Positions 27,064 to 33,361 of a stretch of DNA of 64,000 bases are shown here, in pieces. Made by a program: the position numbers and the translations under genes. Location of the stretch: the sequence record PP620640; one strand, 5' to 3'. Within the stretch, counting starts at the first letter, position 1. Each line of letters opens with the position of its first letter. This DNA is from Escherichia phage fKMPT1. The notes beneath the pieces were generated by a model. It saw nothing but the letters and a program-made list of their open reading frames with translations, ran no database searches and had not been told where the DNA came from.

Positions 27064-27169
27064 AATGACCTCAAAGTTATATTAAATTTTGTATTACATT
27101 GAGTATAAAAATAAGCTATAACACCTGACTTGTCAACAGATTTTATAGCTTATTTGGCAGATTTTTTAT

Positions 27170-27430
27170 AAGGCTACTGCCATCCTTCCATACCACACCA
27201 AACCACACCTTACCTCACACCACCACACCCAACCGAGCCTGACCTTATTAAAAGACCCTCTTAAAGACCTTTTAAAAAGGTAAGTCTCATTTTAATGTAG
27301 TTGAGACTAACTACCCATACTTTACCGGACCTTACTGGACCATACCTAACACCACCGAACCAAACCATACACCACCGAACCGTACCATACCAGACATCAC
27401 TTAAAAACCCTCTTAGAAAGACTCTTAAGT
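27170..27430. repeat. Duplicated G-depleted CA-rich module with conserved TTAAAA(G)ACCCTCTTA box
   Basis: Two ~100-130-bp units (27170-27270 and 27300-27430): plus strand runs of CCA/CAC/ACC almost devoid of G (e.g. ccataccacaccaaaccacaccttacctcacaccaccacaccc; accaccgaacc twice), each ending in ttaaaagaccctcttaaagacc / ttaaaaaccctcttagaaagac. Confidence 0.6.
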
Positions 27431-27648
27431 GATGCTGGTGAGTACCCGTTGGTTTATGCTGCTCAGTATACTCACCAAATTTTCTATGTCAACAACTTTT
27501 ATAAAAAAGTTCTGATAGCTATATGCGTCACGAAACAAAAGATTGTAAACAAGACACCCATTGCAAAAGATGTGTCCAAAAGCTTACTTGCAACGTATGA
27601 CAATACAAAGACAACCAGTATAAACAAAATGACTGTACTGAACATAGT

Positions 27649-28749
27649 TTACTCATAATCCCTAATAACTAGCCCAACAGGAAACTGTAAAGACCCCTTA
27701 CGAGTCATCTTCTGGAACTGAACCGTTAAAGGTTTCCCGATAAACTCTTCAGGATGCTCAGCAAGATACTGTTTCTTCTCATGAGTAGTCTTCCATGAGA
27801 CATCTACAAAGACGTTAGGAAGCGTCTCTACAACGAACTTGCCATGACCACGTTTATCGGTCTTTACACCAGTTACTTTAAACTCTTCAGTGTGCATCTT
27901 CTTGTGCTTAATCAAGAAGTATGAACGGTGACAACACTCATAGAAGGAGTCTTCAGAAATTGAACGGTACATTGCACCTTCAAACTTAGCTTCAACCCAC
28001 TTATCATGGGCTTCATCAAACTCTTCCCAAGAGTTAACACGACGAGATTTAACAGGGACAACTTTACAGCCATCTCTAAAGTCATTCAATGGTGAAGTCT
28101 CAATAATATCTCTACGCTCAGGCCACGTCTTAGTACTGTCACAGATATCATACCAGTAGAACTGGAGTAGATGTCGGTCTGGATTGTCAGCATTCTTAAT
28201 CATAGACACAATGTCTTCTAAGTCCCAACCATGAGCATAAATCTCGCCATCAAAGTCTTTAACTTGCGGATGTAATTTAAGCAACAAAAGTAAATCTGGG
28301 ATTAGTTCTGCTGGAACGTTGTAAACAGTATTCTCACGAGAATAAGCCGTGAAGCTAACTGAATCAGCATCTCTTGAAATTCTACAACGAACACCATCAA
28401 GTTTTGGTTGAGCATCAGCAGGGAATATCAAATACTTTGCATGACTAACCTTTGCAGCATCATGCGCAAGCTGTACACCTACCTTCTCAGTATTCTGTGC
28501 AGACTCTTTTGTGTAAGCATAACCTTTGCGGTCAACCTGCTTTTTATACTTAGCAGCAACTTCAAAGAGAGCTTGCTGTTCAGCGTTACGCTCATTCTTT
28601 TTACCGATGTTTTTAGGTTCTGCTGTATACTCTTCAAACATCATCTTGCCATTCTCTTTACCGTAGGTTGTAATAACTTTGTCGCCTACAGCAACACATG
28701 ACCAGACGTTGAAGGAGCCATCTTTATTTTGTTTGTATAGAATTGTCAT
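27649..28749 (-). CDS. ATP-dependent DNA ligase
   Basis: 366 aa; adenylation motif I KLDGVRC (KxDG); size as T7-type ligases. Confidence 0.8.
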   Translation of the reverse strand: MTILYKQNKDGSFNVWSCVAVGDKVITTYGKENGKMMFEEYTAEPKNIGKKNERNAEQQALFEVAAKYKKQVDRKGYAYTKESAQNTEKVGVQLAHDAAKVSHAKYLIFPADAQPKLDGVRCRISRDADSVSFTAYSRENTVYNVPAELIPDLLLLLKLHPQVKDFDGEIYAHGWDLEDIVSMIKNADNPDRHLLQFYWYDICDSTKTWPERRDIIETSPLNDFRDGCKVVPVKSRRVNSWEEFDEAHDKWVEAKFEGAMYRSISEDSFYECCHRSYFLIKHKKMHTEEFKVTGVKTDKRGHGKFVVETLPNVFVDVSWKTTHEKKQYLAEHPEEFIGKPLTVQFQKMTRKGSLQFPVGLVIRDYE

Positions 28750-28952
28750 TTTCTCTTACCACCAATTTCTACGTCAATAACTTGAATATCACCAGCATCA
28801 TCAAACTTGTGAATGATGCTTTTCACAGTGTAAGTCCAACCCTCGATGCGAACCAATTCACCTTCTCGTGGAACTATTGGGTTACGTTGAGCTACCGTTG
28901 TAGTGGAGTGAACAACATCATAACAATAGATATAGTTTACTAGGACTTCCAT
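28746..28952 (-). CDS. Hypothetical small protein
   Basis: 68-aa ORF coupled to ligase start. Confidence 0.35.
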   Translation of the reverse strand: MEVLVNYIYCYDVVHSTTTVAQRNPIVPREGELVRIEGWTYTVKSIIHKFDDAGDIQVIDVEIGGKRK

Positions 28953-28961
28953 GCCTTTTCC

Positions 28962-29195
28962 TTAAAATGATAAGTCAATATTGATACGTTCACCCTTAAG
29001 GACTCCTGTACGGTCCCTTGCAATCTTACCGTCAACAATAAGGATATGCGCAGACCTTAAAGATTCACTATTAAAACCTTTTACGAACTTACTAGGCATA
29101 ACTACAATAAGCATCTCTTGAATCAACTCTGGAGTGTAGCAGTTGTCGTGAAGTTGCTGAATAACGTCTGCAAGTGTCATTTTTGATGTCTCCAA
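28962..29195 (-). CDS. Small protein, paralog 1 of a two-member family
   Basis: 77 aa; alignable over full length with 29383..29601 product (shared ...DGKIA(R/K)D(R/K)TG.LKGER(I/V)NI...). Confidence 0.45.
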   Translation of the reverse strand: METSKMTLADVIQQLHDNCYTPELIQEMLIVVMPSKFVKGFNSESLRSAHILIVDGKIARDRTGVLKGERINIDLSF

Positions 29196-29386
29196 TACTC
29201 AATGTCAATAAGTTCTTGTGCAATGCTTTTCAGATTACCTTTCAAGAAAACCTTCTCAGAATCTGAAAGAGATGAATTGTCAATTAACCTGTTCATTCTC
29301 TCAAACAACTTCTGCTTACGATTCTTGATAGTTTCCTTTGAAGCACCTTTCATCATCGCTGCATGGGTTCTTCCACGGTGGCTCAT
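29177..29386 (-). CDS. Small basic protein
   Basis: 69 aa, Lys/Arg-rich. Confidence 0.35.
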   Translation of the reverse strand: MSHRGRTHAAMMKGASKETIKNRKQKLFERMNRLIDNSSLSDSEKVFLKGNLKSIAQELIDIEYWRHQK

Positions 29387-29601
29387 AGTAAAGTCTCAAT
29401 GTTTACACGCTCACCTTTTAAGTAGCCTGTCTTGTCTTTTGCGATTTTGCCTCCAGCAATAAAGATATCAACTCTACGTAGAACTTCAGGGTTTACCTTC
29501 AAATTCCTACAGCTACTGCAAAGAACAATAAACATCCCTTCAATCTCTTTTTGAGAGTAACCTGCACATTGCAACTGAACTTCAATCTCTGAAAGCGTCA
29601 T
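29383..29601 (-). CDS. Small protein, paralog 2 of a two-member family
   Basis: 72 aa; paralogous to 28962..29195 product. Confidence 0.45.
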   Translation of the reverse strand: MTLSEIEVQLQCAGYSQKEIEGMFIVLCSSCRNLKVNPEVLRRVDIFIAGGKIAKDKTGYLKGERVNIETLL

Positions 29602-29652
29602 GTGACCTCCTATATAAGATATTGTATATGGTACTCTTCCATGAGCACCTTG

Positions 29653-30156
29653 TCAAGATAGTTTTGCAAACTCTCCGTGGAGTTTTATAGCAGCTTCACA
29701 GTAAGCTTTATGGGCTTCTTCAGGTGTATCAAATAGACCAAGTGATGACCTTTTACCTCTGCATGTTATAGTCGCCCTCCACTTATTGCAGTCTTTAAAG
29801 TAATGAACACCCTTGTAACCTGATTTGTTAGTCGTCTGCTTTACCCTGTTTTGAGCGTTTCCATATTTATCGGTCTCCCTAAGATTAGAAATGTGATTAT
29901 TACTCCTGTTGCCATCAATGTGGTCTATCATCTTAGTAGGTTTGTAACCATGCTCAAACCACCAAACAAGGTGATGCACTTTTATTACAACATCTTTGAA
30001 TTTAAGCACTTTGTAACCATAAGCATCACTTCCTCCGGCAACCTGACCAGCTTTAGCTTGTCTATTCCTATCATACCTGTTGTAGAAGACCCCTTTATCG
30101 GGGTCGTAAATAAAGTTGTCCTTGTAATCTTGAAGTGTTAGTGAACGGCGTACCAT
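29653..30156 (-). CDS. HNH homing endonuclease with AP2-type DNA-binding domain
   Basis: 167 aa; HNH_3-like motif MIDHIDGNRSNNHISNLRETDKYGNAQNR and AP2-like SGYKGVHYFKDCNKWRATI...LGLFDTPEEAHKAY; immediately downstream of intron-containing polymerase gene. Confidence 0.75.
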   Translation of the reverse strand: MVRRSLTLQDYKDNFIYDPDKGVFYNRYDRNRQAKAGQVAGGSDAYGYKVLKFKDVVIKVHHLVWWFEHGYKPTKMIDHIDGNRSNNHISNLRETDKYGNAQNRVKQTTNKSGYKGVHYFKDCNKWRATITCRGKRSSLGLFDTPEEAHKAYCEAAIKLHGEFAKLS

Positions 30157-30689
30157 GTTTTACCTACCTTACCAGTACCCGTGACAAGTGTCTTACTCTT
30201 TAATCCAAGATTTTTTGATGCTTGACCATACATTCTATCAATAATCTCCTTAACATCTGGTACAGCTTTTGTTGGAACCTCTAAAGAAACTTCGTCGTGG
30301 TAACTACAGACCCATCTAGCACCAATAGCTGGTTTCCTACCATTTAGAACTGTAAGTTTTCGCTCTGTTAACTCTCTATTAGCCAAGTTAATCCCCTCAT
30401 TCTGTACCTGCGCCTCACTACCCATGAGTGTGAAATTCAATAACTTATGTGGAGATTTACACCATAACCACGCTCCAGCGACTTTGATATAACCACCTTT
30501 GGCAATTGCAGAAGTTTTTCCAAAAACCTCTTCAAGTGCTTTCTTAGTTGCTTTGAAGTCTTCCTCTAACCTATCAAGCAGCTTTTTAATCTTAGGTAGA
30601 CGTACAAAGTAAGTTTGTTTAGTCAATGCACCTTCTTCCGTAGATGATGCCTTGATAGTTTTTGCAAACTTCTCGTCTCCAGCACCGAA
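30138..30689 (-). CDS. DNA polymerase, family A (T7-like), exon 2 (5' boundary approximate)
   Basis: Contains FGAGDEKFA (second half of motif B, cf. T7 YGAGDEK) and motif C YHDEV; no in-frame ATG or RBS at its 5' end, stop codon 4 codons upstream. Confidence 0.65.
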   Translation of the reverse strand, partial: FGAGDEKFAKTIKASSTEEGALTKQTYFVRLPKIKKLLDRLEEDFKATKKALEEVFGKTSAIAKGGYIKVAGAWLWCKSPHKLLNFTLMGSEAQVQNEGINLANRELTERKLTVLNGRKPAIGARWVCSYHDEVSLEVPTKAVPDVKEIIDRMYGQASKNLGLKSKTLVTGTGKVGKTWYAVH

Positions 30690-30965
30690 CAATACATCTG
30701 GTCAATACACTCGCAAGGTGTACCAGTTCTCTTATGAACTTCTCCGCATTTCTACGGAGTGTCGGACTATATCACGTAGCAGGATGCTACCGTTGCACTT
30801 GGGAATGGTCATTAGCTTACCACCCTACTCTACTCAGTTCATACGTTAAGTATGCTTTTCGATAGTCTCTGAACGTTCCTCTCAAGAGGCTTCGCTGCTG
30901 ATTACCGTATCTTCTCAGACTTAGGCTTCCAGCAATTCACAACGTTTTACATGCGCCACTGACGC
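30690..30965 (-). mobile_element. Group I self-splicing intron (ORF-less) in DNA polymerase gene; boundaries approximate
   Basis: On minus strand, in order: P-like gaattgctggaagcc (~30924-30938), Q-like aatcagcagcg (~30893-30903), R-like gttcagagactat (~30862-30874), S-like gatatagtccgac (~30761-30773) giving P7 GACTAT/ATAGTC; P9-like hairpin ctccgtagaaatgcggag; possible P1 pairing exon tttaT with intron Gtaaa; interrupts motif B of polymerase. Confidence 0.75.
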
Positions 30966-33104
30966 ATAAATGCCATTTTTGGCTTTCTTACGACCTTTTG
31001 TAATCTCGTGGAGAAGTTCCTCATCCTGTGTATACCTACAACGAACAATATCTTCTTCCTTGTTCAGACCAAAGTAAATACTGTTCAGTGTATGTGCATC
31101 AGTACCTGTGTATACTTCATAGAGGTCATTCTCAGCATCATAACGAAGGTACTTGTCAGTTTCTGGATTGAGGTACTTATCAAGATGCTTGCAATAGTAT
31201 CTTCCATCCTCTTGCTTGGTAAATTCTACTGACTCTTTACCTTGTGTTACCGCTTTAGTGAACTCTTCATCACCCATAAAGTTACAAAGAAGAACTAGCT
31301 GTGCTGAGTTTTGGTCTACAGAGATGATATCTGTCCCCTCTTCACAAGTCCACACCTCCCTCATAGGTGCTCCATAGACAGCAGCACCAGACGGTACGTT
31401 TACAATACCATATTGTGTCATACGTCCAGTTGAAGTACCAAATACCATTGCACCAGCACTAAGGCGACCATCAGGACGAATCTGGTTCAACCAACCTTTT
31501 TCATCATCCTTTGAGTTCTCAATAGTTCTGCGTCGGTGCATCAAAGTATAGTACTTAGCAATCTTCTGTCCAAGCTCACCTTCAATCGTATCATAAGATG
31601 ATTCAGTAAGTTTTGGTGAAGTACGGATTAAGCAAGGTTCAAGCAAATCTGTGTATTTCTTCACAGACCAGTTATGTTCAATGTACTGGACACCTTCATG
31701 TTCAACATAACTCAAACCACACCTTTCAACCATCTCATCCCACTTAGGATGCTTTGTAATCATCTTTTTGTTGTCTTTGAAACGACAAACTTTGACAGGA
31801 CGACCATCTGAGTCTTTCTTGTAGTTCCAGTCATCTGGAATCCAACCAACTGATTTCAAATAGTCTTTCACAACTGCTACCTGAGTCATACGAGAAACTT
31901 CGAACTCAATTGGTGTATATGGTGCATCAATCAAACCTGTGTAGCGACTTGACTCAAGCTCAAAGTGGTTAACAACATGGCTGTTATAGTACTTCACAGT
32001 TTTAACTGTTTTTACTGGCTTCCAATCTTTGCACTTCTTACCAATCTTTGCATTCAACTCATTGCAAATTGCACGAGCATCCTTCATTGCTACAAAACCT
32101 TCCTTGTACTCTTCACCAGTTACAGAGTTGGTTGGTGTATAGCAATTCCGCTTTTCAATGTTAAAAATCTTTGTAGTTGGCTTACCAAATGGCTTGATTT
32201 CATATGTCTGCATCTCACCGTTACGTACCTGCTGACGATACTTTGTCTTAGGGTACTTGGTAATTCTCTTCAGTCCATCTGCGTGACCAAATGCTTCAAC
32301 ATACTCATTCCAAGCTTTTGCAAACTCTTCTCCAGTGACTTTAACTTTGGTCTTGATAGTTGGAGGAAGATGTGGTTCAACTTCTGAAGCAAGCTCATTA
32401 GTCAACTTGTCAAGTTCCTTTACATGGAACTCCATAAGCTCTTTATCAGCTTTCCAACCATTGATAGCTTGTTGACTCATCCAGAAAGATGTTTCTTTAG
32501 CTCGCATGTAGGTTTCATAAGTATCTACGCCACACTTCTTCAGCTTGAGATATTCATTATCCAGTGCACGTTTAGTTTTGGCGTTAATACGGATATCTTC
32601 TACAACACGAGTGAAGATTTCTGCATTCCACACACCCCAATGTTCAATCTCTGGTTTACGTACACCGACACGAGCACCCCATGCAGCCAAGCCATGAGCA
32701 CCTTTATAGCCTTTTGGAGTTGGTCTATCCATCCATTGAACACGAGATTGGATAAGAGAATCCTGAAAGAAATTACTCCACGGCTTACACTTTGGATTAT
32801 CAAAGTTCCACAAATCAGGTGCAATGTGATTGAAAACCCACCAGTCATACCCCAGACCATTATGGATGCAAAGTCGTTTTGCCTTTAACGCAAACTCAAC
32901 ACCTTCACGCAAGCCACCCTTAATGTACTTGGTATACTTGTGACCGAGGATAGGCTCATCTGTAAAGACCCATACAGGTGGCTCTTCATCGTCAGATTTA
33001 TAGTCTGCGAAAGCCATTACGTGTACTTTAGTGAACTCAAGGAGTAAACCATCAGTTTCTGTATCGCCAACTAAATGTAAGTTTTTAAAATCTACGTTTT
33101 CCAT
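30966..33104 (-). CDS. DNA polymerase, family A (T7-like), exon 1 (3' boundary approximate)
   Basis: 3'-5' exonuclease Exo I motif VGDTETDGL; motif A-like DQNSAQLVL; ends in RKKAKNGIY (first half of motif B); likely true start at second in-frame ATG (MENVD) preceded by GAGGGAG RBS. Confidence 0.75.
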
Positions 33105-33361
33105 TTTTACTCCCTCTAAAATCATTAACCACATACATTACTGCAAAAAATTATAAAAAGCAAGTTGACAATGTACTTGACAAGGTGTTAATCTTTGCGA
33201 AGTGGGTTTTTACTTAAAAGGTTACTTAACAGTTTAACTATACAGATACTTTAAAACTCTTAAAAGATTATTTAATAGTTTTTAAAAAGCTTTAAAGTAT
33301 AACGTATAGAATACGTTAAGATAAAAGATTAAAACTTAATAGTTACTTAAAAGAGGCTTAC

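Follow-up and report, generated by a model that had tools for sequence, protein, structure and literature searches.

A mosaic pair of apparently long-diverged paralogues beside the DNA polymerase gene of Escherichia phage fKMPT1

Introduction

Among the closest described counterparts of the genes studied here are T7 genes 5.5-5.9, small non-essential accessory genes in the replication module whose products bind host H-NS or RecBCD. T7-like phages have also provided the description of "collaborative homing". The present locus lies in Escherichia phage fKMPT1 (sequence record PP620640), of which we analysed a stretch of 64,000 nucleotides, called the window throughout. It holds two related small genes, copy A and copy B, on either side of a gene for a basic 69-aa protein. 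By analogy, these genes may be likened to T7 5.5-5.9 in being small, lying beside the polymerase gene, showing tight translational coupling, being dispensable in the laboratory, and varying among relatives. However, there is no sequence or fold similarity between the T7 genes and the A/B family, and the likeness is one of analogy only.

The two window genes belong to the same family as PHROG 4230, with no difference between them and it. This family is already catalogued without a known function, and its genes are annotated as hypothetical proteins. In the annotation table of a transcriptome-wide CRISPRi-ART study, SUSP1 gp044 is assigned both to phrog_4230 and to Felix01p173 (PMC11879866). Our literature searches returned no characterisation of A, B, or the 69-aa gene and no mention of a polymerase intron in Felix O1-like phages. 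An earlier note, made from the letters of the window alone, had described the pair as a diverged duplication in an accessory slot next to the DNA ligase gene. We report here how that description compares with relatives across the databases and what role the family may play.

Results

The products of copies A and B align over 69 residues without a gap, at 45% identity and 61% positives (BLASTP, E=7e-18), and the phrog_4230 profile covers residues 1-70 of 72 in A and 1-72 of 72 in B. The earlier note had reported an end-to-end alignment and had named its statistical significance as a point on which the claim would stand or fall; both held up. The profile search that it suggested likewise returned PHROG 4230 over the full length of each copy, a family without functional annotation. 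When 25 sequences, the two window copies among them, are aligned, the family-core columns M1, T2, L10, I25, I46, D56, T58, G59, L61, and G63 are invariant. On this alignment and profile evidence, A and B are confirmed as true paralogues of one small, phage-only protein family. One of the two products had been given as 77 aa, a length that comes from an upstream TTG at 29195. Because the ATG at 29180 overlaps the stop codon of the 69-aa gene (ATGA), is the start given in GenBank, and is where every relative begins (MTL...), it is the true start, and both copies are 72 aa long.

All genes of the region, from the polymerase through the ligase, lie on the minus strand (Table 1). The order of transcription is DNA polymerase (annotated as two CDS), HNH-AP2 endonuclease, copy B, 69-aa gene, copy A, 68-aa gene, and ligase. 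Salmonella phage fBSPA4 (OR711204.1) matches the 2.6 kb around the pair at 100% identity and with unchanged coordinates, while Felix O1 and many other Felixounavirus genomes match it at 92-94%; the ligase shares 94% identity with that of Felix O1.

Table 1. Features of the polymerase-to-ligase region of fKMPT1, in window positions
Feature	Position	Strand	Basis
DNA polymerase, first exon	33125..30962	-	
Group I intron in the polymerase gene, 267 nt, without ORF	30695..30961	-	Rfam RF00028, 59.9 bits, E=1e-13
DNA polymerase, second exon	30694..30138	-	
Last 185 residues of the polymerase	30138..30692	-	
Free-standing HNH-AP2 homing endonuclease, upstream of cluster	29653..30156	-	GenBank annotation
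Putative promoter-like site TTGACA-17-TACCAT, head of small-gene cluster	29628..29656	-	consensus scan
Shine-Dalgarno AGGAGG of copy B	29606..29611	-	read from sequence
Copy B, 72 aa, PHROG 4230, B-type lineage	29383..29601	-	phrog_4230 E=7e-37
69-aa basic helical protein, PHROG 5180	29177..29386	-	phrog_5180 E=6e-46
Copy A, 72 aa, PHROG 4230, A-type lineage, start ATG 29180	28962..29180	-	phrog_4230 E=5e-42
68-aa gene, PHROG 4427, between copy A and ligase	28746..28952	-	phrog_4427 E=4e-45
ATP-dependent DNA ligase, downstream end of cluster	27649..28749	-	GenBank annotation
Unannotated stretch downstream of ligase, ~585 nt	27064..27648		only short ORFs seen
Near-consensus promoter-like site TTGACA-16-TATACT, within the unannotated stretch	27492..27465	-	

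Copy B shares 4 nt (ATGA) with the start of the 69-aa gene, which in turn shares 4 nt (ATGA) with copy A. The claim that the genes between HNH and ligase are all translationally coupled therefore stands for these junctions but fails at the upstream end, where 51 nt separate the HNH gene from copy B. Because this spacer holds the promoter-like site, which overlaps the HNH stop codon, and the Shine-Dalgarno element, the cluster is not translationally coupled to the HNH gene. The promoter-like block occurs once in the window and is kept in Felix O1, Sf13, and UAB_Phi87, the last of which lacks an HNH gene. Felix O1-, Moogle-, and SUSP1-like genomes all have a conserved sigma-70-like site ahead of the family member, and in Felix O1, which lacks B, the AGGAGG element serves the 69-aa gene. 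We rejected the idea that B is a piece of an HNH homing cassette because the two occur independently: B is found without HNH in UAB_Phi87, JH2, and ULIM8, and HNH without B in Felix O1.

At the downstream end, the pair had been placed directly beside the ligase, but the 68-aa gene intervenes, and this gene was found in all Felix O1-like and Moogle-like relatives examined. The slot between the family gene and the ligase is also a hotspot of small-gene turnover (loci L002, L003, L004, L005, L011, L016, and L020), in which relatives carry varying sets of genes for a 72-aa zinc-ribbon protein, an 85-aa lipoprotein, and products of 48, 63, and 83 aa. None of these is present in the fKMPT1 slot.

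Using tblastn, we found the family in ~254 phage records, at 289 places, out of ~259 related records. With types assigned at ≥60% identity, A-type members were present in 219 records and B-type members in 65; ~184 records had A only, ~30 had B only, ~35 had both, and ~5 had a third type. In the comparison of gain and loss proposed in the earlier note, the family is kept across these records and the pair is found in only ~35 of 254. Members are 66-85 aa long, and outside Felix O1-, Moogle-, and SUSP1-like phages they are confined to a few metagenomic relatives. Among them are Felix O1 ORF93/Felix01p173 and SUSP1 gp044, orthologues of copy A.

In every Felixounavirus, Mooglevirus, and Suspvirus locus examined, the small-gene cluster that follows the DNA polymerase gene has at least one member at its head. 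Directly 5′ of it in Felix O1-, Moogle-, and SUSP1-like phages is the polymerase, or the polymerase plus HNH. Metagenomic phages with ligases 37-39% identical to that of fKMPT1 carry a single member between polymerase and ligase, and on a third, short metagenomic contig a member follows the polymerase directly. The family does not extend to the whole subfamily, since we detected no member in Erwinia phage Omen (Kolesnikvirus), although its DNA polymerase gene occupies the equivalent place.

The gene content of the cluster differs among relatives, with seven different arrangements counted across the fetched loci. Writing P for the conserved promoter-like block, these include P-B-69-A (fKMPT1, ESCO56, JH2, UAB_Phi87, ULIM8, and LF110P2), P-69-A (Felix O1 and LinBro), P-A (TP1, RPN213, and SUSP1), P-B-69-other (Sf13 and KPS64), and P-C-69-other, in which C is the third type (Maleficent). 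ESCO50 has a lone B-type gene with an A-type tail and lacks the 69-aa gene. These arrangements bear out the description of the slot as accessory, and show it to be variable.

The earlier note had read the pair as a duplication followed by divergence. Homology stands, but a simple local duplication does not, and we rejected a recent tandem duplication in situ. Copies A and B share 54% nucleotide identity with dS saturated at 1.3, and most relatives carry only one of the two types. In a neighbour-joining tree, the A/B split is about as deep as that of the metagenomic members whose ligases are ~38% identical to that of fKMPT1. The two copies also have discordant similarity patterns: copy B of fKMPT1 is 98.6% identical to B of JH2, and the best matches to copy A come from two single-copy phages, TP1 (97%) and RPN213 (94%), with A of JH2 at only 88.6%. 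Given the saturated dS, the deep split, the discordant histories, and the relatives with a single type, the pair is an old mosaic rather than a recent local duplication, and by the same comparisons the A-type and B-type are deep lineages that diverged anciently.

The pair also seems to be taken apart by recombination. An indel between Felix O1 and fKMPT1 removes exactly the B ORF. In Escherichia phage ESCO50, the lone gene (locus L019 2501..2719) is 99% B-type to ~nt 186 and continues as an A-type tail from the shared AAAGGTGAACGTAT; this switch point is a 14-nt stretch common to both copies, and the deletion takes out the 69-aa gene together with most of A. The chimera looks like a crossover between the two copies, and, as far as alignment can tell, it shows that the copies can recombine with each other and collapse into a single gene. 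Taken as a whole, the loci show that the two-copy state is a minority mosaic arrangement that homologous recombination apparently makes and unmakes.

With ~86% of records carrying one copy and the ESCO50 chimera showing that a pair can collapse, it could be argued that one copy is enough and that the second is a redundant passenger of mosaic recombination, later lost. Selection on the two copies bears on this reading. Across relatives, dN/dS was lowest for the 69-aa gene (0.08), followed by the ligase (0.10), B (0.11), and A (0.18); A and B are thus genuine coding genes kept by purifying selection. These ratios, along with conservation in more than 250 genomes, led us to reject the possibility that they are chance ORFs. 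In the two-copy genomes, dN/dS was slightly higher (A 0.23 vs. 0.16, B 0.16 vs. 0.13), and the B copy of LF110P2 carries Arg at the otherwise invariant G59, both of which fit a redundant second copy. However, the two copies are intact and clearly constrained in all six two-copy genomes examined, and the block with both copies is found in genomes of several different backgrounds. We therefore consider neutral redundancy unlikely. Constraint was uneven along the gene, being strongest at codons 46-65 (dN/dS 0.04-0.05) and weakest at codons 26-45 (0.30) and in the tail.

The gene between the copies had been described as a Lys/Arg-rich 69-aa ORF, which agrees with its computed pI of 10.2 and charge of +6.8. 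Its protein is modelled as three helices (pLDDT 86). It is absent from TP1, RPN213, ESCO50, and SUSP1, and its homologues in Erwinia Kolesnikvirus phages and the T4-like phage CC31 (loci L027 3001..3252 and L028 1995..2207) are 50-59% identical to it; the CC31 homologue adjoins a tRNA cluster. The gene is therefore mobile and ranges more widely than the A/B family, of which no member was detectable in the Erwinia phages (Kolesnikvirus, including Omen) or CC31 that carry it. An obligate three-gene unit of B, the 69-aa gene, and A, such as a toxin-antitoxin-like system, was rejected because the components do not always co-occur. The 69-aa gene is an independent helical module of a separate family, and it would be a passenger rather than a partner needed by the A/B family.

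We searched widely for relatives of the A/B family itself. An exhaustive profile search of 1.84 billion representative proteins returned 12 clusters (50% identity), all of them PHROG 4230, and every cluster name in public sources is "hypothetical protein". A scan of IMG/VR gave four loci only. The family had no match in Pfam or among the defence-system proteins of PADLOC, neither copy scored above cut-off in NCBIfam, and the PDB, searched by sequence with the family profile and then with A by itself, yielded nothing but noise. The AlphaFold2 model of copy B (pLDDT 91.7) predicts, in order, a helix at 3-12, a helix at 17-21, a strand at 25-28, a helix at 38-43, and a hairpin at 46-49/52-56. Despite the confident model (pLDDT 92), no structural relative of the family was found.

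The hairpin invites one structural comparison. With the C-terminal region of the RecA-fold replicative helicases T4 gp41, T7 gp4, and RadA in mind, we considered whether the protein mimics a helicase C-terminal segment through a KNRxG-like hairpin and inserts into or caps the hexameric helicase. The family showed no significant structural or profile similarity to the RecA-fold helicase core, and a profile comparison with the phage's own helicase was negative. Such mimicry seems to us the most improbable of the roles considered.

A second comparison applies to the A-type only. The lipopolysaccharide (LPS) core N-acetylglucosaminyltransferase WaaK/WaaD, a GT4 enzyme, has been reported to add the sugar that Felix O1 recognises. 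Its NCBIfam model, NF012028, was matched by all 11 A-type members scanned (positions 122-171, E 9e-5 to 3e-4), and copy A aligns to residues 122-170 of E. coli O157 WaaD (locus L026 25171..26313) at 30% identity over 50 aa (BLASTP, 28.5 bits), a level at which none of 3000 shuffles reached even 25 bits. LPS is the receptor of Felixounavirus (PMC8300805). The A-type might then be an exapted fragment or a mimic of WaaK/WaaD that interferes with synthesis of receptor LPS and so alters the receptor on infected cells, which would exclude superinfecting phage or stop progeny from being trapped on debris.

However, the similarity is confined to a 50-residue fragment, and at 20 bits against NF012028 it falls far short of the curated cut-off, 618. 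It is absent from the B-type, the third type, and distant members, drops to 7 bits with a whole-family profile, and reaches a probability of only 6.5% in hhalign; WaaG, another GT4 enzyme, gives no match. Residues 3-12 of the family are moreover predicted to be helical, where the GT4 fold leads one to expect a strand in the enzyme. The pairwise similarity is real but limited to the A-type and lost at the family level, and the derivation from, or imitation of, WaaK/WaaD is not supported. We regard it, and the receptor effect that would follow, as a highly improbable lead.

Published expression and fitness data bear on the family more directly. By RT-PCR in Felix O1, the A-type gene ORF93 was maximal at 25 min, together with ORF88 (ligase) and ORF96 (polymerase), and ORF95 (HNH) peaked at 5 min (PMC3185647, Table 3); the family is transcribed together with polymerase and ligase. 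In the CRISPRi-ART screen on an E. coli K-12 derivative, the A-type gene SUSP1 gp044 was scored "Not Fit" (fitness -0.30, p=0.79, six guides), while the SUSP1 polymerase gp046 was "Fit" (PMC11879866, supplement 16). By this measure, growth on the laboratory K-12 strain of E. coli does not require the family, for a single phage-host combination and with false negatives possible. The authors of the screen note that false negatives occur (PMC11879866), so "Not Fit" in a single phage and host is not proof of dispensability.

These data, and the position of the genes, would also fit a replisome accessory factor that adjusts replication by binding to the phage's DNA polymerase (family A), its primase-helicase, or its ligase, with A and B as interchangeable isoforms. 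The polymerase lies immediately upstream and the ligase downstream even in phages with a 38%-identical ligase, expression coincides at 25 min, and nearly all related records have a member. Against this, knocking down the SUSP1 member left fitness unchanged whereas the polymerase scored "Fit", Omen has the polymerase without a detected member, and A or B type is independent of the polymerase C-terminal variant described below. Although a polymerase-side position would suit a replication role equally well, we think such a factor doubtful.

The polymerase gene itself differs from its annotation. What is annotated as two CDS is one gene interrupted by a group I intron without an ORF (Table 1). When the intron is removed (the 5′ exon ends in U and the intron in G), the result is a 906-aa polymerase, 98% identical to the intron-less enzyme of Felix O1, for which the 2010 genome paper reported no introns. 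The intron is present in at least 96 related phage records, in some of which (JH2, LinBro, and HK3) it has an endonuclease VII ORF inside.

Separately, the last 185 residues of the polymerase occur in two versions among relatives. Phages with HNH-AP2 directly downstream (Felix O1, ESCO56, ESCO50, and fKMPT1) share ~99% identity there, and all other phages are at ~75-78%, though their ligases are ~94% identical. The pattern looks like co-conversion by a free-standing homing endonuclease. An ORF-less intron close to a putative case of HNH-AP2 co-conversion may recall the collaborative homing of T7-like phages.

Discussion

The reading that best fits our results is that these genes encode a conditionally useful accessory protein that may bind a partner through its 46-64 hairpin and loop, with residues 26-45 tuning specificity. 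We hold this tentatively, at a probability of roughly 0.4. It draws on the strong constraint, the presence in nearly all Felix O1-, Moogle-, and SUSP1-like relatives, the fixed place beside the polymerase, the co-expression, the dispensability in the laboratory, and the interchange of deep types, and the proposed binding mechanism is read from the pattern of constraint.

In such a mechanism, the protein would bind its partner stoichiometrically, and this partner could belong to the host or be associated with replication. Contact would be made by the near-invariant C-terminal hairpin and loop (I46 ... G51-K-I-x-K-D56-(K/R)-T58-G59-x-L61-K62-G63-E64), the most constrained segment, and specificity would be set by the faster-evolving middle, residues 26-45. 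A genome with both A and B could then have its specificity broadened or backed up.

For annotation, the gains are the right start codon for copy A, a family name common to the two genes, and a corrected polymerase gene model. The locus also shows mosaic recombination creating and removing paralogue pairs, and the confident yet unmatched fold makes the family a modest structural target. If the role proposed here is true, the family would join other small phage protein families whose specificity variants can be exchanged, and it would be a candidate for host-range and counter-defence screening of Felix O1-like therapeutic and typing phages.
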